A stretch of DNA of 64,000 nt from Callorhinchus milii (lineage: Eukaryota). The stretch lies in contig NW_024704749.1 in NCBI RefSeq assembly GCF_018977255.1, positions 9,734,001-9,798,000 of the forward strand, in the 5' to 3' direction. The notes below the pieces were generated by a model. The model ran no database searches. It saw only the letters and a program-made list of their open reading frames with translations, and was not told the origin of the DNA. Both the position numbers and the translations under genes were made by a program. Of the stretch, positions 14,050 to 63,752 are shown one piece after another (positions within the stretch are counted from its first letter, which is position 1; each line of letters starts with the position of its first letter).

Positions 14050-14760
14050 AAAACTGTTTGTGGTTGTGATTGATCACTTCCCATTGCCTGAAAACCACCT
14101 GGTGTGGCTGATGAAATGGATTCTGTGCTGAGTTTAAACCTCAGGAGAGGTTTGATACTGAGCAGCTACTCTGAGTCTCTGCTGGCAAATTCCTGGAGGA
14201 CGGAAGCGAGGGATCCAACCCCAGTCTCCCAAGTGTTTACCGGGAACGGCTCTGCCTTTTTCCTGCGGGAAAACTATCTGCAGAAAATACAGAAAATATT
14301 GTTTTTCAACCTATGTTTCCATGTTGTTTCAGCCTCGACACAGAATGAGTTTCAGGTCAATGAGTGTCGTCGATTCGTTGGACGCACTGACTTTAGAAGA
14401 ACACTCAGCTAAAGCGAGTCAGCGTTGTAAGTAAATAAATCCATTTCTTCTAATTTCATCTCTCCAGAACAGGGAAAGGTTTGCTGTGTGACTCCTGTCA
14501 TTGCATTCCCCCAGGACAGAGCGAACCAAAGCAGTGATTTGGTTTGGTCTGCCAGAGCGACATATACCACTTATGTAATTCCAGAGTGTATTAAACGCAG
14601 GGTGGCAAGAGCCAAGGCCAGTGTCACCAGAGTGTGGGTTGGGGGCACTGCCAATCGAAACCGCAGAACTTGCATTGGAAGTACTATCTGGCGTGCTTCC
14701 TACTGCTTGTCCTGCTAAGGCCACCATTACTCCCAGGTGGTTTCACTTCCAACTGGGTTC
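14050..14760. promoter_or_regulatory. Putative immune-type promoter/enhancer of the FIIND-CARD gene
   Basis: TGTGGT (RUNX) next to CACTTCC (Ets/PU.1) at about 14058-14080. GGCAAATTCC (NF-kB-like) at about 14183. Perfect Ets-IRF composite GGAAGTGAAACC on the minus strand at 14739-14750. These are short motifs, so chance matches are possible. Confidence 0.35.
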
Positions 14761-27700: not shown

Positions 27701-28890
27701 CAAATGGATAATCTTTGCTTTAATATAGTGCTTATAATGCTAAAACATTTCAAATTGCTTCACTGAGATTTGCTGTCAAGTGCAGTAATTGTTGGCAAAC
27801 GTGGCAGCCAATGTGCATACAGCATAATAATAGGCAAAATTTGGAAAACACCATAAAAGACCAAACAAAGCCTTTAGAAAGTCGTACTTCCTCTCATCAA
27901 CTGATTGTAATGCCCTTCTGGCTTAGTTAGTAACTCTTGTCTCTAGGTGATGAGGCTCTTGGTTCAAGCCCCCCGTCGAAAGCTCATGGATCTAGATTGA
28001 CACTACAGCGGTGCATGTGTGGGGGGTGGGGAGCACTGTATTTTTGAAGATAGTACCCGTTGCATCAATGGTTAAACTAAGCTCTGCCTGTTCAGGTGGT
28101 TATTAAAGATCCCATAACACTATTGTAAAATAATGTCCTGCCCAACATTCTTCCATTTAAATTAGTCATTCACTTCATGACTGTGGGACTCGAGGCAAGA
28201 CTACTGCGTTTTCCTACAAATAGTCATGATTTTGATAGCAATTCCCTGTGAAGCACTGGAGACATTTTTACCTTTTACTAATGTCAAACTAACGAAGTAA
28301 TATACAGCATGAGAAAACAGACCACCGCATGTAATAAACAATCAGAGAAATATTAAACATATACAACTTTACAAGATACCTGATTCACAAATGAAATGAG
28401 GAAGATGAACAGCAGCAATATCACCATAACTAACACGAATGTTGAACAATGGTCCTCCGATTATCCAACATTCTCTTTGCACATCAGAAATATAGTCATC
28501 CCAGGAGTTATACTCGTAAAAGATTCTAGCATTGGATTTCGATTCCCATCTCAGTCCTGTTTCAGCACATTCATAATTGCCTTTCTCTGGTAAGGTAATA
28601 CTTTCAAAGAATATTAAAAATGTTAATATGGGCACTGATTTTAAGTAAATAGAATCAAAATTCATACACAATACTTCTTATGATATTTGCAATTCCTGCC
28701 ATATTTTGTCCCATTTACAACAACTTGCATTTACATAGTGCTCTTCAAAAAGGTAACATCTCAGAGTATCGGTTACAAACTACAATGAATGGAGCTAAGA
28801 TTGCACAAATTTTACTTTCAGAACTTACCAGAATTTCCCATTTGCATCTTCTGGAATAGTCGGCTTAACAATGATCCACTTTAGTTTATC
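24754..28890 (-). CDS. FIIND#2-CARD-hydrophobic tail module of gene B
   Basis: GNYECAETGLRW...GGPLFNI...VHLPHFIC; LHVYVLPND; KPPQI; LWEILLRP. CARD DFVHRHKKEII...LYKALLKNNSDFVQNL. Tail MWFLHVVCIIFGIISGFLIGYRFS*. Exon sizes 62/221/257/126/142 parallel gene A (62/215/254/120/142). Confidence 0.9.
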
Positions 28891-31800: not shown

Positions 31801-34800
31801 ACAACAACATCTGAATTAGACTGTCGCTGCGATTTCTTTTTTAAGAAGATTCTCAATCCTGTAGCATTAATATTATCCATGCAGGTGCCTGAGCTGAGCA
31901 AGACAGTTGGATACAACTCGTCCATTCTCAGGGGACAGAATTTGTGACACATTCATGTACAGATAGTAAATTACATCCCAATTTCCAATACCCCTAAATA
32001 GTTCTTGGACTTGAAGCAAATTAAGAGACCAGCGTAGTCACACATTTCAACATAAATGTACACAACATTTACCTAAAGCAGTGTGAAAAGATTCTATGCT
32101 GTCCATTTCTGTAGTAGAATCTAACAGGAGTGTTCTATATTCCTCCAGAGTTGCTTTATCTAAAATATAAAAAAACATCAGTTACAAAGCATACTGAAAA
32201 AGTATGAGTTTCAATCTCTCAAACCAATTCCATTGTTGCTAAATCAGTTGTAGTTTGTGTGTAGAGGAGCTGGGGGGAACGGCAAGGTGGGTATTGGAGA
32301 AATTCTTCTCATATCACTGCTGAAACAGATATAGATTTAATGAATAATTTTACTTAGTTGCGAAGTTGGAAATTTTAATCTTTCTGTTTCTTTACCCATT
32401 TTTTTTCCCAAGAGCTTGATTATCTGAAATGTAAAGGAATACCATGAAGAGAACTGACGGTTCAATGACATTGAAACAAAACAATGTTAAGATAAAACAA
32501 AAGTTAAAACAAAATAGTTTGTATCCATATATAAGTGAGAAACAAGCATGACCCTTCTCATGGCGTATTGAATGAAAAAGTTTGAAATGTTAGGTGATTG
32601 AGAATGAAAATTTTAATCTTTCTACTCTTTCACCTATGTGTTCTCCGAGAACTTCATTATCTGAAATGTAAAGATACTGGCATTTAGGGATAATAACACA
32701 ACAACAACTTCCATTTATATAGCACCCTTCATGCGGGTTAGAGTCTCAGAGTGCTTAATAGAAGAGACGGAAGATGTTTTTCAGACCCTTAAACCTTTTG
32801 TTATCAATGTTGAATCATTCAGTCCATATATTTGGCCAATTATGTTGTTAAACATGAAGCATTATGTGAGCTACCGTTCAACAAATATTTAAGACTGTTA
32901 ATATTCCTTAATTATAATTATGGTGAACATATTTATAGAAATAACTTATTTTGGGAAATGCACATAAGAGGTAGGAAATAAGGTAGGAGACATTGGAAAA
33001 GGACGGAGGAGGTGGAGGGGAAGGCATTGATATCCTCCATCCAGTACCAACCCTCATAACAGTCTAATACTGGATCTGGACTCCCCCTCTCATCCAGAAC
33101 TTCCACAGTTCAACCATTTCTGAGGTCTGCCCACACCTCAACAAAGACCTATGATCTTAATAACCCCATTCATTGAGGTCCAGATTGTTTAAAAGACTCA
33201 TCAAGGTGTTAAAAAAGTGCCCTTTGTCTTTGAAACAATATCTCTGACTATCTTAGTTCTCAACACATTTGTATCAGAATGTTTAGAAGACGATGCCTTT
33301 TTTAAAAAAATTCCATGAAGTGGCTTGACAGCTTTTGATTAAAGAACATAAAATGTTAAGTTCAAGAATAAATAAATTATCTAATTGGATATTATTCAGT
33401 GTTTTTCAGTTTTAGATATGATGCTAAAAAAAGAATAGACGTGTGTACATGTAGACACTGAACAACTTTTACCTGAATCAGTTTGAAATGGAGTTTCTTC
33501 CGTTTGTGTACCTATATAATTGAACGGAGCTCTGCCTTCCCCAAAAGCTTGTTTGTCTGAAATACAAAGTCAACCCATTTAGGAAATATGACCTAATTGA
33601 GAGATCCTCATGTGAAAGATCACTGGTGTAAGCAATCAATGCGTGGTTATAATATTGAAATAGAACAAAATAGATATTTCTAAAAGAAAAAATAAACCTT
33701 TTTCTGAATCAAGATGTTGAGATTCTGTTGTCTCTGTCTGTATACCGATATCACATAACACGGTACCTTGATCTCCAAGAGTTTTTATAACTGAAATACA
33801 AAGGCAAAAATATTTTTAAATAATTGCACTAAAATACCAAATCTTACTTAAAATGTCATACGAAAAATCTTTGCTAAAGCCTTTTTTCTCTTGGGGGGAA
33901 AAGTCAAAGGACCCAAAGTTTATTTGCATTCCCCAAGCTCAAAGACCAATGCCAGAGGGGCAGAACAAGAATAAAAGTACAGCTCTTTTACAGCGTCTCA
34001 GGTCTATGCTTACATATCTATAATTTAGCTGGACATTTGCAGCTAACAGTAACAACTTCAGTCGGAATTCAATGGCCACTAAAACATACACTATAAAATG
34101 AATACTGAATACAAAAAATGAATACAAAAGAATTAATAAAATAAATTCAGGAATGAAAGAGAAGGCAAAATACATCTTCTGAACCTTTACCTTTCTGAAT
34201 AGATAGAAACTGCTCTTGAATGGAATCAGGAATGGTTACTGGTGCTTTTAAGAAAAATACAGATTTGTTAGTTCTATTATAAACATCCAACTTCTTTTTT
34301 TGTGAATTTGAAAATTACAAACTAAATAAAAATTCTGTTCCAGCTGTCTGATTGTGAAGAAAGACCAATGAAGAGGTGGTCTCATCAAGAACTTGATTTG
34401 CATTGCTGTATAGCAATGACTTGGACTTGAATAGATTTTTCCATGTTTCATGGACAAAGATTGCTTCAAATCAATGACATGGATCAATGAGCAGGAACGA
34501 AAGGAGGGGAATTTCTGGGCGCTGACCAAAGGCACGGTCAAATAAATAAGATTTCAGAGGGTTTTGAAGAAAGCAGACGCAAAGTGAAGGGATGAGTTCT
34601 GGAGAATGAGGGCACAGTGACTGAAAGCTTGGTCGCTGATAAACGATAATCATTGTGTTTGATATAGCAGCTCATCACATTGTTGTGGCTAGGGAATTGA
34701 GCAATAGTTCAGGAGTGAGATTTTTGGGGCAGGTAGAGTACAACTGTGAGGAGATTTGAAGATTCGGACAAGGATCATGCATGTACTGAAGGTGCAGAAA

Positions 34801-37800
34801 TTATTTAACGGATATATTTCCAGGTAAAGCATTCACATATAGATATCCCAAATAAAATTAAATATGCATACCTATCTGATGACAAGATCTTTGGTCATCA
34901 ATTGAATCCACTTTTGCATCTTCACAAGGATCGGAAACACCTAAAATATTCTTGGCTTCTAATGAAAACAAAACTAAAGATTTTATTTGTTGTTTGACAT
35001 CAGTTTTTGCAACTTGATATGTGTGAACTCAAGCACTTGACTAGCAGCACAGTGCAGTCAGTGGGTTTATGCCAACAGACTGGCGAATCAAAAGCACATC
35101 AACAAGGGCCTAACCCTAACCCCAAGTAGACATCTAAAGACATTTCAATAAGACACTAACACAATCCTAAACAACTTTCTGTCAATGTATAGGATATAGC
35201 AGCAAGGAGATAAATAAGGCATTATTTAGGGTGGAGCATTCTTAAACATAGTACTAAAATACCTGGTTCTGATATTGCAGTTTCCAGCATTGATTTGACT
35301 TCGGCTAAAACGCTGCTATGTTTACATTCGATTTCTGCATCATGAACAGATTTACTTGTTACCACAATAATCTATAAAGATATTTCCTTTCCCACATACA
35401 AATAATATTTTTCAAGATATTAAATAACTGGATTAAATAGAGATGAAAACGGTTGTAATACTTCAAAAAGAAACTATCCAAAATTAAGGAGGAACCAACT
35501 CTAATTTCATTGTCAGATGTGATTCAAAACCAGACTGCACACCAGAGAAAATTGAACATTTCCTGAGGGCATGTTATAATAATCTTTGCATTTGATATAA
35601 CATTGAAACATCTCAAAGCACTGAATGCAAGGATTATTATATTACCCTTATCTACATGCACTGCCACTTTTAATGACCTGTACACCAATTGTGATTGGAA
35701 TTATTTTGAAAGGTATTATTGTTGGTAATAACCAAGCCTGCATAAAAGATGGACGAATGAAGTTGTTTTCATTATAAGATTACGACATTAAGATTTAGTA
35801 GCAACTGGCTTATATCAGAATGTTTTAGTTAAAGTAAGTACATACAAACAATTCTATAAACAAAAAGTTAGAAACGTACCTGACTGATTATCCATTTCTT
35901 CAAGTATATGTTTGCAAACATCATCTTCATCTGAAATACATTTAAGATGTAAAATGGTCATATCATGTCCCTGAATTGCATTAGGTACGTATTCCTCTCT
36001 ACTCAGTTACCAAGATATTTTCCTATTTATGTTTCCAATATACTTGTATAATTCACAAATAGCAATATAGATTATAATGAATGAAAAAAATTAAAATATA
36101 AATTTACTAAAATGTTTATGTCATAGATATTTGCTCTATATGAAGTATGACATGACTATTCTCATTATAAACATATACAGATTTGGCACAATGACATCTG
36201 GCAAAAATGGTGCACATGTCTTTTCCTTCCCCCAAAAAAAGTTTAGCCAAAAGTTGAATTTAAGAAAATAAGTAAATTTATACCTGATTGATCATGAGGC
36301 AATCCCAAATTTTCCAGTAACATTCTAACTTGGCATAAAAGAACTCTATATTTGCAGATACGCTTTGAACCTGGAGGAATACAAGAGTTCAAATATTTAC
36401 ATGAAATTACAAAGCAGGATGATTGACATAAAACATGATTTTGGTTCATAGCTAAGAAGAGATGACCAAATAAGTGACTCACAGTTTAAAGCGGTCATCA
36501 TGCACACACCACTAACTATACCTGATGGATGGGATGATACAAGGAAATTTGATTTCACAGATGGAGGTTTGCAAACATCTTCTCCATCTGAAATATAGTT
36601 ACAGTGTTTCACTTTACAGTATATTCCGTGAAGAGCTTTGAGACATCTCAACGACATGATAGTGCACTATATCAAACTCAAGGATTTTTATTATTATTAT
36701 TCTTTAGCTTTTCAATCTATTTCAACCAAAGCAACATACATTACAATTTGTTGCATCGATTAAATATGTTCAACATTTTTTGCAATTACTTAAATGTAGT
36801 GAAGAATATTATTTGAAGATGAGTATCCCTGAAGTAAAACACTAAAATTATACCTAGTTGATAGTGAGATGGTCGTACTTTTTCCAGTAGTGTTATGACT
36901 TCACATAATTCAGCTCTATGCTTACAAACTTCTGATTCTGAAAAAATGCAAGAATTATTATCATTAGATAAAAACAATTTTGCAATTCTGATCTTCACTA
37001 ATATTTTTTCTCACATTACAAATAAAACTATGATAATTCTTCACAACAGATATCTCTTCTAAGGACCTCTTCAGATTCTTTTCCCCAGTCCCACAGACAG
37101 CTGGAACATAGAAAGTGCTAAGTTCTATCCACATCAACATGTTAGACTGACTGTATATGCCACCTGAAAAGGATGGGGTGTCAAAATTCTGTACCATAAT
37201 CTCCTATCAGAGGGAAGCTTCATCCAGGAACAATGCCCTCTGCATAACTCAGAGATCAAGAAGTACAAAAAGAAAATAAACCTTACCTCCATTGGAATCT
37301 ATAGTTTCATGTTGTATAGCTTGTGTAGCAGCTGCCATATCTGTTTCTTCCTCAAAAGGTATCACATCTAAAAATGTATTTAAATGTTAAACACATTTAA
37401 CAAATACAGTACCGCAGTACCAATACTGTATACTATAACATATCAGGCTATGTTTCTGAAAGTTTGTTAACTGAAAGAAGAAATAAGTGATGAAGGTTAT
37501 AGCAATTAATTATTTAACTATAATCACATTAGTTTACAAAAGACAAATTGACTGCCCAATTCTCCGTAGATAGCAAAGAATATGATAGTGGTACTATGTG
37601 GGAAGAAACATTGGTAATCAATTTTCCAAGCATAATGCCAAAATTGTTGAATGTTATTGAATGTTCATAAATTTAATTACAAACAATACAGGATACATGA
37701 TAGTATATAAGGGTTTCAAATTCTTTTTTTATTGATTTTGTCTGAAGATTGCAATCCTGAAAATAGGAGCAATAGAATGCAGTGAATATTGATAAAAGTA

Positions 37801-40800
37801 GCTTACAAATATGAAATGGTTGTTAAATTAGTCTTGGATCAATACCCACCATATTCCACTGACCTTAGGGCCAAATAAAAGATTCTAAGATTACTATGCC
37901 ACTCAATAAATGTAACATATAACATTATAGGATATACTCTGCTGCATCTGCCCCTTTCCTATAGTTTACCTGAATGCAATAGTAGTAAACTTCCAGATGC
38001 AACATTTTTTTTAATGTTACAGATATTAATGTTTTACATGAAGTGGGTTAGTTTCATAAGGTCATGTAGTTCTTTGTTTCTTCTTTCAGTGGATAATCTT
38101 CATGTTTTGGATCTCGATAGTTAGTCTTGTCAGACTATTAATTATAATCCTTCAATCCTTCAATAATCAAAGCACTTTATACGATTTTACTGAGAACTAG
38201 AATGACTACATTTGTAGGCGAACGCAGCAATTTGTTGTGCATAGCAACGTCCCACAAACAGCCAAGACCAATGAATAACCAATTTTAATTGGGGCTTGTT
38301 GACTAGAACATTGGGAGAAACTTCCTTCTCTATTCAACTGTGGATGGTGTGAGCAGTTCTGTAAATCCTGTGAAGCATTTTGAGACATCCTCCCAATAAA
38401 AAGCATTTTCAATATTGTTTTATTTACCTGAAAACAATAGTGGTAAACTTGTAGCTGTAAAAAAGAAAATTTAACGTTAAAGACCATCATTTGTTTCCTG
38501 AAGCAAGTTAGTTCCACAAGGACTAACAGTTCTGTTATTTCACTCAGTTTAACTGTGGATTGTGCTAAAGCTCTGTTTGACCCCATCCTCACCAAATAGA
38601 CAAGTAGACTGGGTTAATTGCCATGTTTTTATTTATATCATCTAACTCAGCAAAGACTGAATCTTAGCAAAGACTGAACCAAGATTGAATCTAGGACCTT
38701 TCGTTGATTGGCTCCAAACAGTGCATTCATTCACCCAGTAACTCCACAATATAGTTTAATATGTTCTATCTTCATTCTCGCTTTCAACCGCCTTAGGGTC
38801 CCTCTGGATTTTAACCTGACAACCTTCTTTCTGCTAAAGTATCAAAAGATTCTGGGGGGCATTATGTAATCATTTACTCCCTTTCCTGTTCTCTCTATTT
38901 AATCTACATTGTTGCAGACGTTGGAGTAGTTGTTTATAGAGAAGGATACATAAAGTAGAAACATGTTCTCTTCACAAACAATGGATTCCTCACCTCGTTG
39001 CGGTTCAAATTCATCTAGCATAAAAAAAGGAAAAAAAATTAGGTATAGCTGTGCAAAAGGCGTTTTATTTGGTTTAAATTATATTTCCAGCACAACCTTA
39101 CATTAGGGAGATCTCTTTCACAGTATGTCATTAACAAAGCCCACTTAAAATTTAGGGTGCAACATTGTAAAAGGTATTTCTTGCTTTATAGTATTGTGTG
39201 AGATCTTTCCGAATAAAAGTATGGTAAGTTTTATAACGTTCATAAATTTAATTACAAATAATCAGAGCAGCAAAGTTCCTCCTGCCTTACGTAAATGGAG
39301 TAAAACAATAAAAATAGATATTTTTCAGGTAAAATAAAAAACATTGGATTTCTGTTCAGTACACACATGTTGAAAAAGGGTATAAACTCTCTCTTCGGAG
39401 TAATACTTTAAGAACCACATAAACCTCAACACATTTCTGGCTTGACCTGGCGTTATAATACAATGCATATAGTAATTTTTCTACCATTTCTCTATGCATT
39501 TTTGTAAATACACAGTTCAAGTTGAACGCAAGCCAAAGGGAATGGTTACACTTCTCATTGTTTATGGATTGAGAGAACAAACTAAAAAAAATGAAACATA
39601 CCTTCAGAAGAATGGTAAGGTTGATGAGGTATTGGCTGTATATTAGATGACATACTTCTAATTTCCTGTAAAGCTTCCACATCTGAAATTTTTAAAATAC
39701 TGTAGTAAGCAAATGTGCAGTATAAGCTAGAACTAAAAGATTCTATTTTCTGAAAGTGTAGAAATGTAAGCAGATATAGTTCCAGAATCACCATAGGTCT
39801 CAAATGGAAAAATCGAATAAAAAAACAATATATAGCATATATTACCAGAAAAGGTTCTATGCACATTGCTATCTGCAAAAAAANTCAGAAATAATTTTTA
39901 GAAATGTTATTTTTTAAATAGCGTGAACAATTGCATATCAAAAGGATTCTGCTCTGCAATATACAGGCTGCAAAAGTGCTAACTAAGTTTTTTGCCTCAA
40001 TTTTTACTAAGGAGGAGACAGGTAATTTATTTGATTATATTGGAAGGGGAACTCGAGAGTGTTGCAGAGATAAGTTGTAACATCATTCGCATCACTACCA
40101 GCATAGTTGCCCAAAAGCTGTACATAGGTAAATAAGTCTCAGGGACCAGATAAATTGCATCCCAGGATCCTTAAGGATCTAATGGAAGAAGTTGCAGGAA
40201 CTCTGGCACAAATCTTCCAGAAATCACTGAATACCGGAGAGGTGCCTGGAGACTGGAGAAAGGCAGATGTTACTCCTATTCTTTTTTAAAAACAAAAGGC
40301 AGCAAGAATGACCCCAAAAACTACAATCCAGTGCGTTTGACCATTGTGATGAAGCTATGCAGACCCTTATTGATGATACGATCATGAAGCATCTGGACAG
40401 AAACAAAATCATAAAAGATAGCCAATATGGGTTCATGAGGGGGAGATCTTGCCAATCTAATTCACTGTTTTTTTTTGACAGTGAGCTTGATAAGGTTAAG
40501 ACAGTGGATGTTGTATATTTAGATTTCAGTGAACTCAATATTCAGAACTTGAATGTACAATCTGATAAAGACACAAGAGTTCTGAGCGGCATGCACAATG
40601 ACAACGGCACATGAAATCTGATTGGGTGTCTTATATTGTCCATTGCAATTGGATTTCATAGATGGAAATCTTATACATCATAATCTCTAAATTACCAGAT
40701 TTTATTTTTGCAAATTAGTGAAATAACTGTTCAAAATAATTTCTGCTTATTTGTAGCAAGCAAAAGTAGTAATTACCTGAAACGGAAGAACGAATTCCTG

Positions 40801-43800
40801 CAAAATATGAATAAATTATAAATATTAGCATTCTCAATCTAATTTATGTCTCAGACATGGACAATATATTGATCAGAGTATTTGAGATGTTATTTTTCCC
40901 CTTGCTTGTGTATCTTGTAATTATCAACTGGTGTACCACATACTGTTGACAATTTTCTGCAATAATAAAATGTTGCTAAAAGGTCAGAGCTTGGGAATGT
41001 GCTTGTCAGTTTGTTTTTGACAAAAAACAAATGAAACAAAAAAGGAAATAAAATTGTCAAGCTAACACTACCTGAGGGGCTTGAGGGGATAGCACGGAGA
41101 AAGGGCAGTAGGCTGAGGAAGCATTCAAAGAATAAGGAAGACTGCTTGGTCAGGCGATCAGAACATGGGTCAGCAGACGTAGCATGCTGCTGCCTAAAAG
41201 CTTTTAAAGCAGTGTGGCCTCTTTAGCTATTTTTCATGTTGGCATTTAACCAACAGTATTAGGAGTATGTGGAATCAGGAAGAATGAGACATACATACAA
41301 CAAACATCCACCCAGCCCTAACCCGTAAGATGGTTTTGTCTTCAAATTTAAGATGACACAAAAATGCGGAAGATGCTTGAATTCAGTTTTAATTTGGAGG
41401 CCGGTTCTCTTTAAAGATTGTGGAAAACCATCTTCCAGATTAAGAATGTATTTCAGTTTTTCACAATTCTGGACCATCCTAAATTTTAAGTATGACAGAA
41501 TAAGATTATTTAGTACAGCATATCCGGCCAATAGTATTTGAAATATACCTGATTTTGAGTGTAAAAAATCATCCGTTACATTGTTACGCTCCATGCTCCT
41601 AGCTGCTTCCACTTCTGAAATATTTAACAAGTACAATACTGATAAATTTAAGAATATAAAGATGACAACACTGTACTAACATTCAATCCATAAAGTATGT
41701 CAAATTCAAGTAATTTAGAATCCTCTCCAAAATCTGCAATTGTACCCACATGGTAACACTTCCAATTAAATTACTAAAATGCTGTGCAAAAATATACCTG
41801 CTCCAGTTGTCCCATCACTTAAGACTCACAATCTGGAGAACAGAAAATCAAATCCTAGGTGGCAGCCATCCACCATTGCGCTCAATATGACCCTGTAAAG
41901 CAGTTAGCAATAGAAGGGATATAAACACTAAATCTGGAGGATCTCAAACATACACACCGGGCTTTGGCATTGTCTTTTCATCCTCATCATCCTCAACGAT
42001 GGCATCTACAGTACAAAGGCAAAAACAAAATCTCCAAGATTAGGTGCCTTATAGGATCATCATCATTATGCCCTTGACATATTTCAGGAATAAAATCAGA
42101 TTGACAAATACAAAAAACTAGCCTGATTTGACAACTTACTGAAATTAGGTAGGGTACACATTCAATGAAGCTAAGTCTGCCTGAAGAACTGCCAATGTTG
42201 TACATTGGATAAACACTGAGGCCGAATGTGCAATCTTCACACATATTTTCATTGCTAGCGAGTTCTATATTAATCAACTCTATTTTTAATCATGAAATGA
42301 ATGCATCTTTTTCTCCACAGGTTACATTCAACAATCAAGGTGAAATAAAGTGCAAGCCAAAGCCCTAATGGGTACGGTGATCCTAGCTGGACAAGTATCG
42401 AGAAGCTTGCTAGACAATGTTCTCAAGGCAAGCAATGCCGTTTTTACTGCTGGTTAAATTCCAGTAGTATCCCATTGCACACTCTGGGCGCCCATTATGG
42501 TTTACATATTTAACCTATACGTACCTTTGGTACAAACTGAGTCGCTGCTTTCTGATGATGAAAGTTCCACTTCATCATTATCCACTTCATCATTATCTTT
42601 CCAATATAAATGAACATCATCAAAATAAGATTAATTAGTTCAACTTTCCAAACCCATTCACGTTGTTCTGCAACTTTTCTAACTGAAAACATAGGAAGGT
42701 TTGTTTTCTTTTAGGTTAATAAAATAAGTTTGGGATAAGAAGCACTTCAAGGCATACCTACTAAAGCAGCCGCAGCAGAAACTTTACCATCTTCTGGGAA
42801 AACAAAAAACAATATTCATTTAAGCTATTGATCAGTAATTGTCATCGCCCCCCCCAGGGTCTATGTAATAATAATCCTTGCATTTGATATAGTGCCTTAT
42901 CATGTCTTCGAGACGTCTAAAACTGCTTCATAGATATTCTGTAAAGTGAAGTGACTGTATATTTTATGGACGAAATACAGCAGCCAATTGCCATGAAGAT
43001 TTGTATGAGTAAGGTTGTTATTTTTTCAATACTCACTGGATCTTAACAAGATATTCCATAAAGCATCATTCTTTTTTCTCTTTGTCAGTTTTAACTCAAA
43101 TAAATCATTTTCTTTTTTAATAAATACTTCATAAAATGGCTGTTTTAAATCCATATCAATGTAATGGAATTTCATTTCCTGTAATAAATATAAAATTATT
43201 ATTTTTCTTAAAATGCAACAGTATAATGAACTAAAAATAAACACAATTTCCACAAATACAAACAGAAGTACTTCTCCATTTCCTACTTGATTTACTATCA
43301 AAACTTCTCTCTTTCGCTGCAATATATAAATTCTTCCAATATGGCAAGTAAGCGTGGTTTGAATAATCAATGTTCATTTGCTTTGTGTATTCAGAAAACA
43401 TAGGTCCCTCCAGTAACAGTCTGTTCCTTTATAAATGTTGCTTTATAACTGTTGACTTAAATTTGTATTTTTTATATAATGTGTCTCATTCAATGGTTTA
43501 ACATACAGGTGACATATTAAATAAGATTTCAGTTAGATGAAAAGTACAACAGGAGTGAATTTATCATCTAATTATGACTATAAAATAAGATGAATTTGTC
43601 CCATTTTTTGTTCCAAAGCTTTAATATTAATTAATAATAGATTCGTTCTTAATAATATGGCATTAACACTTTCTGAAGTTAACTGAATTTTAGCAGTACA
43701 TACATATTTCTGCTTACTTCTGGTATGATCTGAATATCTGAAGAGCTAATTAGAGAATACTTTCTACCAAAGTAGAGGGACCTTGTGGGTGAGGGACGTT

Positions 43801-46800
43801 TAATCATAACCGATTCGGATTCCTGCAAATGAACTGCCTGCAAAATAGTGGAGAAGCACAACTTTGTTTTGCAATGCACTCTCATATCATAAGGTAGTCA
43901 CAGAATAAAAATTGAATTAAAACAAAATTACCTGCATTATTGAAAGGTCATTTGGTATAACATAGACATGAAGAATTACAGCAGCTGGGTTTGCAGTTTG
44001 ATAAATCATTGTCAGACTATAAAATGAAAACCACGAGTTTCTGTCAACAATAACTCCCATAAGCGAAAAAGTTGGCATTTGTAATTCAGCATGAGCTTGA
44101 TGAATTTCTGATGGCTTCAGTACACTATAGGAGCTTTCTTTAACATGGAAGATGGCAAAGGTATAATCTATTTTTCTATCTGTGCCTGCAGAAGAAAAAA
44201 AACATGTTTATGCATAGTTGTAGTTTTCTATAAACGAAACACGTCATAGGAGAGAACCCTGAAAATTTCAACCACAGGAAAAAAAATTAATTGATGTTTC
44301 CCTGGAGGATTGTTCGTTATGTATCAACCTTCGGAACAAAAAAGGCCATACAAGCATTTTAAAGTCATTATCTGAAATATTGTCTCTGTGATTTTATCCT
44401 CTCAAAATGTCAGCAAATGTTGGCACCCAATTCTCTGTGGATGGAAATGTGAAATGTTTTCCTTTGGGTGGGAACAATGTGTGTAAACATACTTAGTTTA
44501 TTATTTATTATTATTATTAATGTATCAGGCTATTTTTCAACAAGGAACAGTGACAGTTTTTCTGTAATATCAAACAATACAATTGAACTATGTATACACT
44601 ATCAACTTAATGGGAACTACTTCCCTAAAAAACATTGTAATACCAATTGGAACAATAATTTAAACACAGTATAATGCATGTGTACAGTCAAGCGCAGAAA
44701 TAAAGAAAATATTTAAAGATACCTTTTAAACAAATAAAATGAGGAAGATGAATAGCTGTAATAACACTGTCTTCTGCCAAAATATTAAACAATGGACCTG
44801 AAAATTCTGCTTTCTGTATCACAATAATAGGAGCATATTCACGCCACGAGCAATATCTGTAATCAATAGTTGTTGATTTTGTGATTTCCCATCTTAGTCC
44901 AGTTACAGCACATTCATAATTGCCTTCATCTGGGAGGGAAATCCTGCACAGAAATGTGAATATGAGAATGTAATATAGAACAAAAAGACATAAAATGATT
45001 GGGTTTCTAATCATACTTTACCTAAAAAATAACTCATGATCAGAGACATCAGGCTCTATCACTGTCCAGTTTGTTTTTTCCTACAGAGGAACAAAGAAAG
45101 GGAATATATCAGATTTTGGAGTAAATCAGATTGTTCCTTAGTATCCTATTTTTACTACATGAAACACATTTCTAGCCAATTACATTTAAATCAAAACTGT
45201 TACCTCTTCATTCTCATACATGTTAGAAATAGTCATCTTTTGGTGACTAAACTCACAAAGTATCCTCATCATTCCTGTGCGAAAAGATAAATAGGAACAG
45301 GTTTATTTTTTCTCTCTACTTTTTCATAAGAATTATTTATTACAATTTGTAGAATTTTGCAGCTACAGTATTTGGATTCACCAAGACTCATCAGAATCGA
45401 GTACAGTGGGAGTTACTGCAGTAAGTGCACTACAGTTACATTAATAGCATAACTGGATTATATGACACATTACGCAATTTGGTCAACTCCCAAGTAGTCC
45501 AATGTTACAACAGTTTCCCTACTATGTCAGCATGACAGATTTAGTAATCCAAGTGGTGTAATTAACAAAGCTGTGAGTTTGTTTAGAAACATGATGACAT
45601 ACATCCATTTGTCCACATTAACCAGATATAGACACATCATCTACTGTAATTCCAGTATCATATCTATTTGAACTCATATAATTCACTCATTGTGTATTTG
45701 TTCAATATACATTTAGAAATAGCTAATCTGGCTATAAAGGAAAAGGATGCCAGTTCCTGTAAGAGACTTTTCCAGGTGAAATTATATAACATTCTTCTTT
45801 CTGCGCTTTACAATAATACTTTCAACTATAATAATAATCCTTGCATTTGATATAGCGCCATATCACATTTTCGAGACGTCTCAAAGTGCTTCACAGAATA
45901 TACTGTAAAGTGAATTGACTGCGTTTTTAATTTACGTTATATGGGAACACTCCTTCCAAGGCAAGGTTTCCCGATAAATTATCAAAAAAGATTGTTTAAA
46001 TAAACAGATATTTAAAAAAACATAGAAACTTGAGAAAAAGGTTGTTACTTCTAATTTATATATTTTTAAAAAAAGTGGCATTAGCTATTTAAAACAATGA
46101 AGGCAGATAACGTACTTCTGTGCCTCTCAGTAGTTTCTGAAGTCACAGGTTGAAATTTAGCAGGCGGGCTCCAATCTAAAATATATTTAAAAAGATATAT
46201 TTTAATATTATCACAATTAAATATCAGAAAATAACAATAAGAATGTAGTATTAAAATTCTACAAATAGTGTTACCTGCTGATGTACCTTTGGGGAATTCG
46301 CCTGCAACTGAAACAAAAAAGATTGTGAAAATCTGTTCACAATTAACTAGTGTTAAAATACACAAATATTTGAAATTTTGACACGTTAAAAATACCTGTG
46401 ATTTTAGCTTAAGACTATCGAGTCCACTCAAAGTCTTCCAAAAGAAAAGCCAAGAAAAGCAGCAAATCTGAAGATTGGGAGAGTTTTAGAAACCAGCAAA
46501 AAAAAACTAAAAAACTCATTAAGAGCGAGAAAAAGGAGTATGGGGGTAAGCTATCGAGGAACATTAAGTCTGATTGTAAAAGTTTTTACAAATATATTAA
46601 GAGGAATAGTCGAGTGAGGGTAAATGTAGGTCCACTTCAGTCAGAGACGGGAGAAGTTGTAATGGGGGATAAGGATATGGCAGTGTCCCTAAATGGGTAC
46701 TTTGCATCTGTCGTCACCCTAGAAGACAAAACAAGTCTGCCAACAATAGAGATGCACCAAGTGGATAAGGACAGGGAGCAACTTAGGGAAATTTTCACTC

Positions 46801-49574
46801 ATGGAGAATTGGTGCTCGGGAAACTGTTAACACTAAAAAGTGACAAATCCCCTGGTCCGGATGGCTTGCATCCCAGGGTTTTAAAAGAGGAGCTTATGAG
46901 ATAGTGGAGGCCTTATGTCTGATCTTCCAAAATTCCTTGGATTCTGGAACAGTCCCCATGGATTGGAAGATCGCAAATGTCACACCACTATTTAAAAAAG
47001 GTGGAAAAGGAAAGATAGGGAACTATAGGCCAGTTAGTCTCACATTAGTGATAGGAAAAATTCTAGAATCGTTGATTAAGGATGTGGTAGTGCGGTATTT
47101 AGGACACAATATAATTAGGCCAAGTCAACATGGCTTTACAAAAGGGAAGTCATTTTTGACAAATCTCATAGTTTTTTGAGGATATTTTGAGTAAACTTGA
47201 TAAGGGTGAATCAGTGGATGTAGTCTATTTGGACTTCCAGAAGGCATTCAATAAGGTGCCGCATAAAAGGTTAGTCCAAAAGATAAGGGCCCATGGAATT
47301 GGGGGGAAGCATATTAACGTGTATTGGGGAATAGTTAATGGGTAGGAAACAAAGAGTAGGGATAAACGGGTCCTTTTCAGATTGGAGGGATGTGACTAGT
47401 GGAGTACCACAAGGCCTCAGCTATTTACCATCTACATCAACGATCTAGATGAGGACATCGAAGTTAAGATATCTAAATTCGCGGATGACACAAAACTAGG
47501 AGGAAGTGTCAACACAGAGGATGACATTAAAAAAATGCAGCGAGACATAGATAGGTTAGGTGATTGGGCAGGTAGGTGGCAGATGAAGTATAATGTAGGG
47601 AAGTGCGAAGTCATCCACCTGGGTAGCAAAAACAGTAGATCGGGTTATTTTTTAGAAGGGGAGAGATTGGAATGTGTTAGCGTCCAGAGGGACTTGGGTG
47701 TCCTTGTACACCAATCACAGAAAGTTAGTCTGCAGGTGCAGCAGCAATTAGGAAGGCGAACGGTATGTTAGCATTCATTATGAAAGGATTAGAGTATAAG
47801 AGTAGGGAAGTCTTGCTGCAACTGTATAGGGCCCTGGTGAGACCACACCTGGAATACTGTGTGCAGTTTTGGTCTCCTTATTTAAGGAAGGATGTACTTG
47901 CCTTGGAGGGGGTGCAGCATAGATTTACTGGGTTAGTACCAGGGATGAAGGGGATGAGTTACGAGGATAGGCTGACCAATTTGGGCCTTTCTTCTCTAGA
48001 ATATAGAATTAGAGGGGATCATCAAAGAGCATAATCATCAAAGGGTATGGCTTACTCCTGCTCCTACATGTCATGTTATGTTATGAAATTTCAACTGCTG
48101 CTTAACTATGGCAATCATTGAAGTGTTTAACTGAAATGACACCATTTCCATTTCCGTTAAAGAACAAACACAAAATTCTGTGCAATCTGCAAACCTCATA
48201 CCCGGAAATCGAATTACTGAGGTGATTCGCTTTCCCAGACAGCAATATCACATCCCGTGAACCTCAGAAACGTGTCGGCACGTCTAATGCGCGTCGAGTA
48301 TGCATTTACTTTAAAAGCTGCCACAGAATCTAGTGCTACTTGTGCGACTGTAAGGTCCAATCCCATTAAGGGTGTAAAATATTAAAAGGCAAATTACTGG
48401 TATAGTCAATGACTCCAGATCCATCTGCACCTGCAAAGAGAGAAAAAAAAAGAGGAGCCTTTTATTTATTTATTTTTTTTAAAAAAAAAACAACATTTCG
48501 ATCCACGGCGCTTGTCCGAATAATAAGAACCACCGCCGCCGCCGCCACAAGACGCCTCTTGCCTCTCGATGTGGCGCTTTCCGCGCCGTCGAGACGTCTC
48601 GAAGGCGCTCCGCGGGCGGATCGTGCAACCAAATTATTGTGGGTTTTTTTTTCGGTCTTGAGGGACTATATGTGCAATAATAATAATAATGTGTGGTGGG
48701 GGTGGTGGTGGGTTGGGGGGTGGGGGGAGGAGGAGGAGGGGGGGGAGGAGGAGGAGGAGGGGGAGGAGGGGTGGGGGGGGGGGAGGAGGAGGAGGGGTGG
48801 GGAGGAGGGGGGGTGGGGGGAGGAGGAGGAGGGGGAGGAGGGGTGGGGGGAGGAGGAGGGAGGAGGGAGGAGGGGTGGGGGAGGAGGGGAGGGGGGGGGG
48901 AGGGAGGAGGAGGGGTGGGGGAGGGGGGAGGGTGGGGGAGGAGGGGGGTGGGGGGGAGGAGGGGTGGGGAGGGGGGGGTGGGGGGAGGAGGGGTGGGGAG
49001 GGGGGGGAGGGGGGTGGGGGAGGAGGGGGGGGGGGTGGGGGGGGAGGAGGAGGAGGGGTGGGGAGGGGGGGGTGGGGGGAGGAGGAGGAGGGGTGGGGAA
49101 GGGGGGGGGGGTGGGGGGAGGAGGAGGAGGGGTGGGGGGGGGGGGTGGGGGGAGGAGGAGGAGGGGTGGGGGGGGAGGAGGAGGAGGGAGGGGTGGGGGA
49201 GGAGGAGGAGGGGGGGGGGTGGGGGGAGGAGGAGGAGGGGGAGGGGGGGCTAGTTCTAGCCATCGAGAAGAGTCAATGGCGCTGCACGTACTCCTCTCCT
49301 GGTAAGTCACGATGGATTCCAACGCGAGACCACACTCCCCCACCGTCAGGTCGTCCTCCAGCGGCTGCTGGGCCGCCAGGAGCCTGAGCCGCTCGGGGCT
49401 GACGGGCTCGGGGTTGCTCGGGTCCGCGTTCAGCAACGCCGTCAGGTTCCGCTTCACGTCCTCGATGGTGTCGCCCAACTTCACCCCCACACGGAATTGC
49501 CTCCCGTCGACCCGCAGGACGTTTAAGTCGAAGGTCGCCTCGGCCCCGGCGTCGGCCATTTGCTGTGAGGCCAT
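24754..49574 (-). CDS. UBL - FIIND - micro-exon linker - FIIND - CARD - putative TM tail protein, about 1345 aa (gene B; NLRP1/CARD8-related)
   Basis: Exons 5'->3': 49574-49292 (UBL), 48430-48398, 46307-46275, 46175-46116, 45274-45204. FIIND#1: 45080-45022, 44943-44723, 44185-43932, 43837-43718, 43178-43037. Then 22 phase-1/1 micro-exons from 42793 to 29563, and 29057-28978. FIIND#2: 28890-28829, 28600-28380, 27256-27000, 26185-26060, 25727-25586. CARD plus tail: 25202-24754. The total is 4038 nt with no internal stop. The domain calls are firm. Whether this is one transcript, and the exact linker exon set, are less certain. Confidence 0.7.
29563..42793 (-). CDS. Array of symmetric phase-1 micro-exons (21-93 nt) forming the linker of gene B
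   Basis: 42793-42758, 42596-42525, 41614-41549, 40797-40777, 39872-39846, 39682-39602, 39014-38994, 38454-38428, 37367-37287, 36937-36854, 36587-36522, 36370-36284, 35930-35880, 35334-35263, 34940-34872, 34244-34191, 33790-33698, 33556-33473, 32159-32073, 30438-30355, 30197-30111 and 29637-29563. Each has AG/GT ends, a length divisible by 3 and an open frame. Confidence 0.65.
39975..40530 (+). mobile_element. CR1 LINE internal RT-region fragment, degraded
   Basis: KSQGPDKLHPRILK..., GEVPGDWRKADVTPI, SQYGFMRGRSCQSN, VDVVYLDFS. Confidence 0.85.
43037..45080 (-). CDS. FIIND#1 (ZU5-UPA) module of gene B
   Basis: GNYECAVTGLRW...GPLFNI...IHLPHFIC; IFHVKE...HAELQMPTF|SLMGVI...LHVYVIPND; LWNILLRS. 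Exon sizes 59/221/254/120/142. Confidence 0.92.
46435..48085 (+). mobile_element. 5'-truncated CR1 LINE (ORF2 reverse transcriptase, frameshifted), antisense in an intron of gene B
   Basis: KSPGPDGLHPRVLKE, WKIANVTPLFKKG, NYRPVSLT, QHGFTKGKS, YLDFQKAF, KFADDTKLG, LVRPHLEYCVQFWSP. It ends in ...CTCCTGCTCCTA...(TATGT)n. Confidence 0.95.
48692..49249. repeat. G-rich low-complexity tract (GGA/GGGGTGGGGG units) in intron 1 of gene B
   Basis: About 550 bp made almost entirely of G and A with periodic T. Confidence 0.95.
49292..49574 (-). CDS. Ubiquitin-like domain exon (first coding exon of gene B)
   Basis: MASQQMADAGAEATFDLNVLRVDGRQFRVGVKLGDTIEDVKRNL...PERLRLLAAQQPLEDDLTVGECGLALESIVTYQER follows the ubiquitin pattern (DTIExVK, QRLxxxGxxLEDxxTLxxYxI). 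There is no C-terminal diglycine. The phase-1 donor A|GTACGT is at 49291, and the exon lies in a CpG island. Confidence 0.85.
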
Positions 49575-49675
49575 CTCTCTCTCTCTCTCTCCCTCCCTCT
49601 CCCTCACTGGGGGGTGTGTGTGTGTGTACGAAGCTCCTCTCCCGCCCTCCCGCCCCCCGCGTGTCGGTTCAAATC

Positions 49676-49774
49676 GGCCACGTGGTTCCAACGGTCCAAA
49701 CGCCCTGCGCTCGTGCGCACCACGTGCTCAAACCGTCCACGTGCTCAAACCGTCCACGTGCTCAAACCGTCCAC
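49676..49774. promoter_or_regulatory. Four CACGTG E-boxes, three of them in a 17-bp tandem repeat (CCACGTGCTCAAACCGT x3), upstream of gene B
   Basis: GGCCACGTGG at 49676-49685. Repeat units at 49720-49736, 49737-49753 and 49754-49770. Confidence 0.6.
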
Positions 49775-49834
49775 CTGCCCCCCCCCCCCCACAAGCCAAC
49801 CATGCGGGAAGCGCGGGCACCGCCGCAGGCGACG

Positions 49835-50328
49835 CGGGCACCACAGGTAATGTGTAACATGGGCACCACAGGTAACGTGTAACATGGGCACCACAGGTAA
49901 GCCATAGGTAACGTGGGCACCACAGGTAACGTGGGCACCACAGGTAACATGGGCACCACAGGTAACATGGGCACCACAGGTAACATGGGCACCACAGGTA
50001 ACATGGGCACCACAGGTAAGCCATAGGTAAGATGGGTACCACAGGTAATGTGGGCACCGCGCAGGTAACGTGGGCACCGCGCAGGTAACGTGGGCACCAC
50101 AGGTAACGTGTAACATGGGCACCACAGGTAAGCCATAGGTAACGTGGGTACCACAGGATTACATGGGCACCACAGGTAACATGGGCACCACAGGTAAGCC
50201 ACAAGTAAGATGGGCACCACAGGTAACATGGGCACCACAGGTAAGCCACAAGTAAGATGGGCACCACAGGTAACATGGGCACCACAGGTAAGCCACAAGT
50301 AAGATGGGCACCACAGGTAAGCCATAGG
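49835..50328. repeat. Minisatellite, 18-bp core GGGCACCACAGGTAACAT with variant units
   Basis: About 20 copies of GG(G/T)CACC(A/G)CAGGTAA, with short inserts GTAAC(G/A)T or GCCA(T/C)A(G/A)GTAA. Confidence 0.97.
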
Positions 50329-52576: not shown

Positions 52577-55500
52577 CTATCTCCTGATGGAAGCCAGGTA
52601 CGCGTACCAGAACAGAGCTACCAGATTAGCGAACAGCACCCGGAACTGAAAAGAGGGACAGTAAAAGGATCAAACCAAACAGGAGGAAAGGAAACACAGA
52701 CTTTGATCTTAGCTATAGAGAACTCCATACTAGAATCCACAATGATTTTATCTTTGAACTTGCAGCAACCCAGTAGCATTATTGGAAGCAAAATCATCTG
52801 CAAACAGAAGCACTGTAATTCTATCGGAAATGCCTGGATCAGACATACTAAATCCCTCTCTCTCAATGCCATTCAATACATTATTGATGAATACTGTGAA
52901 TAAAGTGGCGGATAGACAAATTTGCAATATCCCCCTTTTTAGAGACAAATGTTCAGTCAGTGTTCCATCAACCCTTAGCACTGATCTTAGATTTGGAATA
53001 CCTATCCTAGGTAAAACATAAGAGCTGACCATGCATTCCCATAGCTTTTAGCTTCTTCACGAGCTTCTTGAGGCACTAGTCTGAAATCCTTACAGAAATC
53101 AATGAACAGAACTTAATTGGGTTTCCGAAGTCTTACGAAGCTCTGAGACCTCATACAAAGCCACGAGGTGCCCCACACATTTCATTCACCTTGAAAGCTT
53201 TACATACTGGTTTTGTCTATACAGATATGTGTTGAAGAAGCATCACCTGCTTGCTAAAGGGTTACATAACACTCAGGCTGCAGATTTATTCCATCATTAT
53301 GCATAAATACTGTAAAACAACTTGTTACTTTAACTAAGGATAGGTCAGTGGCAGTTAAGCACCATGAGCAATTCCAAGATGAAATTTTAATATTAATCCA
53401 TGCAACCAGTGAATATACTGTACCTGAGGAGGAACGTAATTGATGTTAATGTATTGAAATATTGTCCAAACTTTCCAGTTCATTTTCAGAGCTATCCAGT
53501 AACTGGTCTGCATTTTATCCTTCAGTGCCTTCATTTTCTTCCCCTGTCATAGACAAAGTAATACAACATTCAGATCAACGGATTGCCTCAGACCTCCCAG
53601 CCCAGGTGATTGTATGGGACAGAATCCCTTCCATTAACCCTACTTTAATCACTCTGAATCAAAGATGATTATTAGAACTACTCCAACTCATAGACGAAAA
53701 CACGCTCCTTAGCTGAGCCAATCACGGGTACCATTGTTACAAGCACTCTGGGATGCTATCCTGCATGAGGGGCGCTATATAAATGCAAGTTGCTGTTGGA
53801 TATTAATAGCACCATAGCATTGGTTAAAATGATACGAGAGTATGTCCCAGTGCGCTGGCGAACAATCCTCCGATAAATTGGTCATTCACGCTGTGGCCAT
53901 TTGCAGGAACTTGCTGTGCTCCATGAAATAAAAGCAACCTTCTGAGCCAGGGGTAAGAGTGTTGCCAACAGAGCAAATGGATATTCACTGTGACCCACCT
54001 CGAGCATACTGATAACGAAGAAGAAAAGAGCCAGGAAGGCTGGAGCAAACACCAGACGATCTACAAGCAGTCTCTTTATTTGTGAGAATGCAACATTGGA
54101 TGGGATATACTTGTCCAGAAACTGATAGAAGAAGTGACTTAGAGGCCCTGTGAAAACCAGCCTGAAATCAAATAAAAATAAAGCAATGCATTGTAATATT
54201 TTGCAGCACAGAAATATGCCATTAGGTCCATCAAGTCTGTGCTAGTGTTTTTCTCCACATGAGCCAAATAATCTATTAGCACTCTCCTACTTGCTCCCAA
54301 TACCATTTAACATCCCTATATTTTTAATTCCTTAAGCATCCTTCAAAAATCTAATTCAAATGCACTTACTATTATTATTATAATTCATTATTTAGAGACT
54401 AAGGAATATGAAGTAAAAATTCTGTTCAGTGTTATACATTGGCGATACACCTGTTAGTGGCCACTGAGTTGATCATCAACAGTGCTCTGGAATATTACTG
54501 ACTGCCTGGCTCAGGTATCAGACTTCTGACCTCCATAGAGTACCTACTTGATTCTATTCTTCCATTACCATTTTGTATCCTTCCTTTATCAGGGTCCAGC
54601 AAACTGTACCAAATACTCAAAATATATGACCTAACTATAACTACGCCCTTGAATGTAAGTCTCCAGTCTGCTTACCCAAATACTCCAAATCTGATCGGAC
54701 CTCCAATGTCGAGACTCGTTCCTGTGTTTGGTTGCTTGCCCCTTCTCTCAATAACTTGGGACAGAATGTTTCCAAATCCTGAGAGGATTCCACTGCGAGG
54801 AAAATGAAATAATGAGTACAGTATTCTTATAAAACTATATTTGGGTGGGAGGAGTGGGGGAAGAGGAGTCAAGAAATTGTACTGGCAGTTTAATTTTAAA
54901 AGCTGTGGGATGTGGGTACTGCAAGATATTCCTAGTTTAAATACAGCAATATCCGAAGAGATTCCACTTGCAGATTAGGATAATAAGCAAACATGGAGCA
55001 TCTCCACATGTATTAGATTACACGTAGTTGTTTCGGCCACCAAATACATAGACAATCCACTTTTCAGTATACCCTTTGAGGCATTCTCCCAACATGAAAG
55101 CTGCTATATAAATGTAAAATTATTGTTGATTACATGCTCAATGTTAACAGCCATTTCATTCAAGGTTATTAACTCAAAAGGCAAAACTAACTTTGTGATT
55201 TGATCTAAACAACAAAGAAAATCGACTGCCCATGGAATGTTTGCATTTACAGAAATTCAAACTATTTTGAGTGAGTGAGAAGTTCCCTGATTCAATCGCA
55301 GTCTGTGCTGAGTTAACTCATTTCAATCAGGGCAATAGAATGGGTGCTATAGTTTCCTCAAAGTCCTGGGAAAGTGAACAATCACAATGGTTCCTGCTAC
55401 TGATTGATTTCAATGGACTCCTGCTAAAAATGCGCATATTGGTGATGGATGAAGATAGGATTCCAAGTTGGGTTCAGATGTAATTCTGCCCACAGTCAGC

Positions 55501-57786: not shown

Positions 57787-63752
<5,966 letters not shown>

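Follow-up and report, generated by a model that had tools for sequence, protein, structure and literature searches.

What is a ubiquitin-like (UBL) exon doing at the front of a FIIND gene? The question is raised by a stretch of 64,000 nucleotides (nt) from Callorhinchus milii (assembly GCF_018977255.1, contig NW_024704749.1, positions 9,734,001 to 9,798,000 of the forward strand). This whole stretch is called the window below, and its numbering is used throughout. A single GC-rich exon on its minus strand (exon 1, 49574/49559-49292) encodes a UBL and precedes the exons of a FIIND protein. Our answer is that exon 1 opens a gene that probably extends well beyond its annotation, with the order UBL, 22-amino-acid (aa) motif, first FIIND (FIIND1), acidic linker with LC8-type motifs, degenerate second FIIND (FIIND2), CARD8-type CARD, and C-terminal hydrophobic segment. 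This UBL-FIIND-linker-FIIND-CARD-anchor arrangement is a real, ancient, and apparently undescribed architecture within the CARD8/FIIND family.

Is exon 1 truly a UBL? The exon offers a start codon at 49574 and a second, in-frame ATG at 49559, which is RefSeq's choice, and it closes with a phase-1 donor (A|GTACGT) directly after 49292. Its acidic product, with two lysines, scores 30.5 bits against the Pfam ubiquitin family (PF00240), above the curated cut-off of 25.4. AlphaFold2 with a 70-row alignment gives a strand-strand-helix-strand-strand model with a predicted local distance difference test score (pLDDT) of 84-97 over residues 11-90; the single-sequence run (pLDDT 49) was uninformative. 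VIA-align matches the model to ubiquitin and many UBLs at Z 11-14 (up to 13.8) and a root-mean-square deviation of ~1-2 Å. Foldseek agrees, with ubiquitin, SUMO, ISG15, Rad23, and other UBLs near-tied, and all 10 structural rows from the ESM Atlas are UBL-containing clusters; the Atlas feature search with residues 1-175 returned no usable match. The beta-grasp proposed in the initial annotation is thus confirmed. Its hope that a structure search would name the nearest UBL class was answered in part: many UBLs match, and no class can be named, with ubiquitin, UBL5/Hub1, OASL, ISG15, Rad23, Dsk2, FAT10, FUBI, and SUMO all within ~2 Z units. A lead to FUBI (E 3e-04) was not reproduced with a catshark orthologue, for which only ubiquitin and its variants scored.

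Could such a domain be conjugated, or handed to the proteasome? The orthologous chondrichthyan UBLs are 21-30% identical to ubiquitin, with a net charge of -4 to -13 and one to three lysines. Past the last UBL strand, di-glycine or LRGG is absent in five of five chondrichthyan sequences (C. milii and four orthologues), as had been noted for the single exon, so the Callorhinchus UBL would qualify neither as a conjugatable modifier nor as a cleavable fusion. The insertion reported after the helix is also there: it appears as an 8-residue gap relative to ubiquitin, C-terminal to the helix and modeled as a loop (residues 46-54), variable in sequence among orthologues and 4-5 residues shorter in two of them. 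Proteasome-shuttle UBLs carry a patch that is hydrophobic at ubiquitin positions 8, 44, 68, and 70, together with Gly47. With these positions taken from the ubiquitin repeat in protein P0103, all seven chondrichthyan UBLs compared have a polar residue at 70 and a non-glycine at 47; position 68 is Thr or Val, and 44 is Leu in four of the seven. Chondrichthyan UBLs are therefore predicted to lack a Rad23/ubiquilin-type patch, and the idea of a canonical proteasome handle is doubtful, with the residues at 47, 68, and 70 not kept.

Does exon 1 belong to the FIIND gene, or is it a gene of its own? The exon has one match only in the genome searched (G000; one of two candidates scored). Two public C. 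milii models, XP_007900135.1 and XP_042193315.1, begin with exactly this product, and because both carry ubiquitin and FIIND domains, the fusion is already present in automatic annotations. Sequencing runs X1, X2, and X3 are presumed to be RNA (their type is not on record), and their joints are GT-AG introns. Contigs from X1 and X2 follow exon 1 to 49290 and continue beyond it for another 255 and 125 letters; together, the UBL piece and exons 2-6 amount to 516 nt, against a contig of 517 nt. Predicted depth agrees to two decimals in five of six repeat-free bins and to within 0.03 in the remaining one. For X3, which comes from a second study, a fit to one bin predicts the depth of the other three exon-only bins; the remainder is 44 nt within the UBL exon and 29 nt within the first FIIND exon. 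Please note that the UBL junctions are read from contig ends and depth arithmetic rather than from the listed joints, a table crowded with contigs of short and long interspersed elements (SINEs and LINEs). The arithmetic points to exon 1 being spliced onto exons 2-6 and the FIIND exon. The claim that an integral UBL is fused to a FIIND gene holds on this evidence, and the possibility that exon 1 is transcribed as an independent gene does not.

How far does this gene run? Our model runs along the minus strand between 49559 and 24754 and has 40 exons, every one with AG/GT ends, in one open frame of 1,335 aa. Exons 2 (48398-48430) and 3 (46275-46307), of 33 nt each, encode the first and second halves of the 22-aa motif; both rest on RefSeq mapping and conservation, and exon 2 on depth arithmetic as well. 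Exons 4-6 (45022-46175) carry a variable spacer and the start of ZU5, and exons 7-10 (43037-44943) carry FIIND1 (ZU5-UPA, with His262 and Phe288|Ser289), recognized by Pfam, NLRP1 alignment, and fold match. The first half of the linker occupies exons 11-21 (36854-42793), all phase 1-1, with nine GT-AG joints and junction 12-13 taken from a loose end. Exons 22-33 (29563-36587), again phase 1-1, form the second half and include three xQT motifs; their junctions are predicted from canonical AG/GT ends, the open frame, and matching segments in Narcine, Hemitrygon, and Amblyraja models. FIIND2 follows in exons 34-39 (25586-29036; Pfam, contig joints), degenerate, with Leu|Thr at the cleavage site and Cys at the His position. 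Exon 40 (24754-25202) holds the CARD8-type CARD (Pfam CARD, 9.7e-09), the hydrophobic segment (a predicted tail anchor), and the stop; the joint 25586-25202 between exons 39 and 40 is found in X3 and X5.

The gene is probably longer than annotated because the 40-exon frame is open, because the model is colinear over every domain with residues 217-1596 of a single Narcine model (P0018), and because contigs pass the RefSeq stop exon. Identity to Narcine is 38% in the UBL, 67% in FIIND1, 34% in the linker, 62% in FIIND2, and 53% from CARD to anchor. The first 216 Narcine residues, which are integrase-like, match nothing in the window, and we omitted them as a probable prediction artefact. Hemitrygon and Amblyraja models likewise span the annotation break. 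At least 16 of the 29 junctions from exon 11 to exon 40 were seen in contigs (14 in the joint table, one in the contig table, and one from the loose end). X3 coverage is zero over several linker bins and was not used as evidence.

The annotation itself tells another story: one gene for a UBL-FIIND protein that ends in an acidic tail and lacks an effector domain, and a separate gene for a FIIND-CARD-anchor protein. Several observations weigh against our longer model and speak for this division. The RefSeq model ends at 504 aa; RefSeq and other models split the locus, with separate C-terminal models here and in both catsharks; 13 central junctions, from exon 21 to 34, are not among the joints listed; and the intron directly before exon 29 contains an X3 contig (depth 15.5) that could represent an additional 5' end. 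The RefSeq stop exon at ~40392, however, is skipped by the contigs and sits inside a reverse transcriptase (RT)-like repeat fragment (40227-40611); the phase-1 exon chain is unbroken, Narcine has a single model, and no CpG-island-like window occurs between 24.7 and 48.4 kb. We give two separate genes little chance and are fairly confident that all parts belong to one gene and one protein; short isoforms beside the full-length form are possible.

Some features inside the gene deserve a record in their own right. Duplicates and decayed copies of linker exons (~74-80% identical) lie at 30308-30485, 30911-31056, 32052-32205, and 32367-32760, and the copy near 32423, shifted out of frame by a single base, was excluded from the model. 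Intron 1 opens with a G-rich simple repeat of 535 bp (48700-49250), which inflates local GC. RT-like LINE fragments occupy introns at 46400-48030 (plus strand) and at 40227-40611, the latter already mentioned.

What kind of protein stands behind the UBL? The 22-aa motif is more conserved than either of its neighbors: 16 of 22 positions are invariant in six species, and interspecies identity is 77-91%, against 38-54% for the UBL and 60-77% for FIIND1. The initial annotation makes no mention of this motif, the best conserved part of the protein. Compared with solved structures, it gave no meaningful match (one row, E 0.67). Pfam finds FIIND and UPA-FIIND twice each in the gene. VIA-align places FIIND1 at Z 24.6 to CARD8 (7jkq), and the fold matches the FIINDs of CARD8 and NLRP1. 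Its His262 and F288|S289 align with rat NLRP1 H942 and F968|S969, and the His also with human H1186. The available parts of PMC8081665 and PMC3210808 describe the catalytic His as essential for FIIND cleavage. A His occupies this site in 133 of the 155 FIINDs scored. Among the orthologues, F|S is kept in eight of eight species, and the His has become Tyr in six of the eight (the Hemitrygon model is without that exon). The full set for autocleavage is thus present in FIIND1 of only two of eight species, and the FIIND that precedes the CARD does not have it: in four of four FIIND2 domains, the cleavage site reads L|T, L|A, or L|S and the His is replaced by Cys. FIIND1 self-cleavage is probably still possible in C. 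milii. To judge from these sequences, the family shows that FIIND proteins can persist after losing the cleavage His.

The linker is 20% Asp plus Glu. In five linkers, xQT motifs number 3, 7, 6, 4, and 3, counts reached by 43, 0, 0, 1, and 11 of 5000 shuffles for this post hoc pattern; the gene model has none outside the linker. TQT anchors define LC8 sites, according to the portions of PMC12057147 available to us, and the linker has the motifs of a predicted multivalent LC8 (DYNLL) client. The closest solved structure to the CARD is CARD8 (E 7e-04), and the CARD tree groups it weakly with CARD8 CARDs (Shimodaira-Hasegawa-like approximate likelihood ratio test, SH-aLRT, 86). Neither NACHT nor LRR was found in the full-length Narcine model. 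At the C-terminus, residues 1312-1330 form a hydrophobic stretch (best 19-residue hydropathy 2.4; Narcine 1.8) that ends five residues before the stop, and similar hydrophobic ends occur in the two catsharks.

Where did the UBL exon come from? The initial annotation saw a lone GC-rich exon, contrasted it with the AT-rich remainder, and proposed that exon shuffling or retroposition had recruited it together with its own CpG promoter. The contrast itself is confirmed: exon 1 has GC 0.66 and a CpG observed/expected ratio (o/e) of 1.02, against 0.34 and 0.33 for region 24754-46307. It is also ordinary. Elsewhere in the window, the coding exon of an acylphosphatase gene has GC 0.66, o/e 0.86 (0.87 for the gene), and a third-position GC of 0.90 (exon 1, 0.92), and another island at 57.0-58.3 kb has GC 0.60 and o/e 0.91. 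Directly upstream, 49575-49850 on the minus strand is a 5' CpG island with 5' untranslated region and likely promoter (GC 0.67, o/e 0.96, and X1 contig depth upstream of the ATG). The island over exon 1 is the gene's normal 5' island; a first exon is expected to lie inside one, so its composition is no evidence on capture. Four CACGTG E-box sites lie at 49678-49760, three of them within a 17-bp tandem repeat. All five CCACGTG matches of the window fall in the 5' island; the number itself does not exceed chance (15 of 100 shuffles). Upstream of the island, a GC-rich minisatellite of 490 bp (49836-50328) inflates local GC.

The orthologues speak more directly. UBL-FIIND orthologues are present in Leucoraja, Amblyraja, Rhinoraja, Narcine, Hemitrygon, Chiloscyllium, and two Scyliorhinus species, and their read-through models depart from the alignment at the same exon end. 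The FIIND tree was built from 41 of 155 extracted domains, after removal of isoforms, window-gene duplicates, and domains of <170 profile positions. In it, FIIND1 forms one clade (SH-aLRT 100) with the species-like order chimaera, (sharks, (ray, skates)). The chimaera-elasmobranch split is more than 400 million years old. By these comparisons, the fusion appears old and common to cartilaginous fishes. A recent capture, or a retrocopy bringing its own CpG promoter, would explain a lone GC-rich exon with a phase-1 donor; it would not explain orthologous UBL-FIIND genes across skates, rays, and sharks, read-through products that diverge at an identical exon end, or an island that resembles the window's other 5' islands. 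Nor does genome G000 hold a parent copy, the search returning no second match, and no poly(A) run ends exon 1; such retrocopy marks would not outlast the age implied by the orthologues. The recruitment of exon 1 as a recent event is refuted, and retroposition finds no support. Ancient exon shuffling is possible.

What, then, might the UBL do? Exon 1 opens the coding sequence of a CARD8-family gene that cartilaginous fishes have in common. Our preferred reading is that its UBL provides the handle or bait for a predicted brake on CARD8-type inflammasome signaling that is anchored in a membrane; we offer it tentatively, at somewhat less than an even chance. We infer every functional step that follows, with the same reserve. 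The tail anchor would hold the protein on a membrane, and the xQT motifs would bind LC8, pairing the linkers. Together with the CARD, the uncleaved FIINDs would capture active UPA-CARD fragments, for instance those of a neighboring CARD8-like protein, a possible partner; this step is modeled on full-length NLRP1 and CARD8 with DPP9. The brake would then be lifted once the UBL-motif end is bound, modified, or destroyed. In C. milii, FIIND1 self-cleavage may make the UBL-ZU5 piece a separable lid.

Why a brake, rather than a sensor of the NLRP1B kind, which the initial annotation had invoked? In a direct functional-degradation sensor, FIIND1 would cleave itself, attack on the UBL would lead to degradation of UBL-ZU5, and the freed UPA1-linker-FIIND2-CARD-anchor would cluster on the membrane and recruit caspase-1. 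The alignment of His262 and F288|S289 with rat NLRP1 and the CARD8-type CARD both suit such a sensor, and functional degradation and E3-ligase sensing are described as established for NLRP1 in the available text of 10.64898/2026.10.24.761588. Against it stand the Tyr in place of His in six of eight species, a CARD-adjacent UPA that stays under its own ZU5 (degenerate site in four of four), and a UPA to be freed ~900 residues away from the CARD. The analogy thus survives for C. milii, which keeps the His and F|S, and is weakened across the family; a direct sensor is possible and, in our view, unlikely. We favor the brake because cleavage is mostly lost in the family, because the CARD-adjacent UPA is never free, and because cleavage-resistant NLRP1 and CARD8 still bind DPP9. 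On this last point, the sections of PMC8081665 and PMC11760013 at our disposal also report that the full-length protein joins autoinhibitory complexes with the C-terminal fragment. The brake is further favored by the intact CARD8-like gene next door, by a UBL that diverges faster than FIIND1 while the motif behind it stays conserved, and by the excess of xQT motifs over shuffles in all five linkers.

The retention of FIIND despite loss of the cleavage His points to a brake or a scaffold. One rival reading is a non-immune scaffold. Here ZU5-UPA, the LC8-bound linker, and the tail anchor would tether an organelle to dynein or the cytoskeleton, and the UBL would be a plain interaction domain. ZU5-UPA folds are indeed found in ankyrin and UNC5 as well, each linker has three to seven xQT motifs, and the gene has only one copy and a tree that follows the species, which sets it apart from expanded immune families. 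The FIIND and CARD are nevertheless nearest to CARD8 and NLRP1 in sequence and fold, and the gene adjoins a CARD8-like gene; we regard a scaffold as quite unlikely.

It is important to remember that a number of points weigh against the brake. The faster divergence of the UBL may reflect relaxed constraint. Callorhinchus milii and Chiloscyllium keep both His and F|S in FIIND1, so cleavage may matter in these two. The xQT pattern was picked after the sequences had been inspected, and the membrane anchor is a prediction from hydropathy. The FIIND trees do not firmly tie the long gene to its neighbor (SH-aLRT <=94), and the two FIIND genes may be adjacent through local duplication only. That neighbor is a conventional CARD8-like gene (14345-23579, plus strand; P0020, XP_007900105, maps here), with a CARD and a FIIND that has His and F|S; it lies tail to tail with the long UBL-FIIND gene.

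Are there UBL-FIIND proteins elsewhere? We took the wider family as the best 150 representatives of a profile search, and among these, eight non-chondrichthyan proteins have UBL and FIIND together. Lungfish XP_043928969 and pheasant XP_031448037 are UBL-FIIND(-CARD) proteins, with one to three UBLs N-terminal to the FIIND. The pheasant-related group consists of P0038, P0040, P0047, P0091, P0159, and P0029, five of them closest to the pheasant protein (57-70% identity). Di-glycine follows the UBL in five of these six, P0038 having a full RLRGG, and His and F|S are kept wherever read. The lungfish protein P0027 and its close relative P0048, which groups with the lungfish protein in the FIIND tree, have two to three tandem UBLs and W|S or F|T at the FIIND site. 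A single clade of all UBL-bearing FIINDs, a group defined after seeing the tree, is rejected (approximately unbiased test, p-AU 2e-05). The UBLs of the three groups (chondrichthyan, lungfish, and pheasant-related) are 15-29% identical, no nearer to each other than to ubiquitin. The three groups could have arisen by fusion on several occasions or from an ancestral UBL-FIIND-CARD that was lost many times. An ESM Atlas feature search for P0038 returned CARD8-like clusters, with no ubiquitin family listed.

Our literature searches, whose coverage leaves out most subscription papers and bioRxiv supplements, found no UBL-FIIND fusion described. None is described in the accessible portions of PMC8195603, 10.64898/2026.10.24.761588, PMC11258412, and PMC12436146, and the supplement of PMC11258412 returned 0 matches for "ubiquitin" and 0 for "ubl". 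Its NLRP1 sheet, as far as available, tags great white shark XP_041065155.1 as "guard like"; this protein might be an orthologue.

Taken at its boldest, the pattern would mean that vertebrates have repeatedly placed ubiquitin-fold baits before CARD8-type FIIND switches so as to detect tampering with the ubiquitin system. The chondrichthyan form would be uncleavable, on a membrane-anchored brake with a neighboring executor; the pheasant-related di-glycine form would be cut by a deubiquitinase, and its new N-terminus would lead to functional degradation. In this full form, we consider the proposal rather unlikely. If true, the proposal would define a previously undescribed class of inflammasome tripwires built on ubiquitin mimicry. 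The deubiquitinase decoy suggested in the initial annotation fits the pheasant-related di-glycine homologues better than the Callorhinchus protein. NLRP1 and CARD8 serve as the model cases for "integrated decoy" sensing in vertebrates, and the range of baits carried by such proteins is an active question; the chondrichthyan, lungfish, and pheasant-related fusions offer natural test cases for ubiquitin-fold baits that report interference with the ubiquitin system. Should the bait idea fail, the corrected gene model would stand, as would a domain architecture that is new to a known family.

As for the surroundings, four FIIND domains were found in genome G000, three of them in the window. The fourth belongs to a FIIND and death-domain gene (L002, G000:C11:17316000-17325900), near which no UBL was found in the 19.8 kb examined. 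FIIND1 and FIIND2 as one clade are not rejected (p 0.52). Other neighbors matched by Pfam are the acylphosphatase, a Transmemb_17 family gene, and a DNA polymerase B exonuclease, among 9549-9830 (minus), 5325-5765 (minus), and 62932-63153 (plus). An exon at 53885-54241 (minus) gave no Pfam match; we take it to resemble PXMP2.

How does the long gene compare with known systems? Human CARD8 (7jkq, 6k9f) shares with it the ZU5-UPA FIIND, the CARD8-type C-terminal CARD, and the lack of NACHT and LRR. Where CARD8 has a disordered N-terminus, its tripwire, the shark-type gene has a confidently folded UBL, and it adds a second FIIND, a 500-residue acidic linker, the degeneration of the CARD-adjacent FIIND, and a C-terminal hydrophobic anchor. 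NLRP1 and mouse NLRP1B, known for functional degradation and the IpaH7.8 decoy, resemble it in the His and F|S of FIIND1 in C. milii, and an N-terminal bait is plausible; the long gene differs in having no NACHT-LRR, in the loss of the His in six of eight orthologues, and in a freed UPA that would lie far from the CARD. The lungfish XP_043928969 and pheasant XP_031448037 group also places its UBL(s) N-terminal to the FIIND, but these UBLs are only 15-29% identical to the chondrichthyan ones, and no 22-aa motif, second FIIND, or anchor was seen in them; the pheasant-related proteins have di-glycine in five of six, and their FIINDs branch apart. Integral-UBL proteins (Rad23, Dsk2/ubiquilin, parkin, OASL, and midnolin) have the same N-terminal beta-grasp, effectively tied at Z 11-13, whereas the long gene has no UBA or ligase domain, does not keep ubiquitin-patch positions 47, 68, and 70, and encodes a UBL with the net negative charge and few lysines given above. 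Finally, PIDD1 combines tandem ZU5-type modules with a death-fold domain, as do ankyrin and UNC5 by fold match; identity to these proteins is 9-11%, and the long gene differs from all three in having two complete ZU5-UPA units and a CARD.

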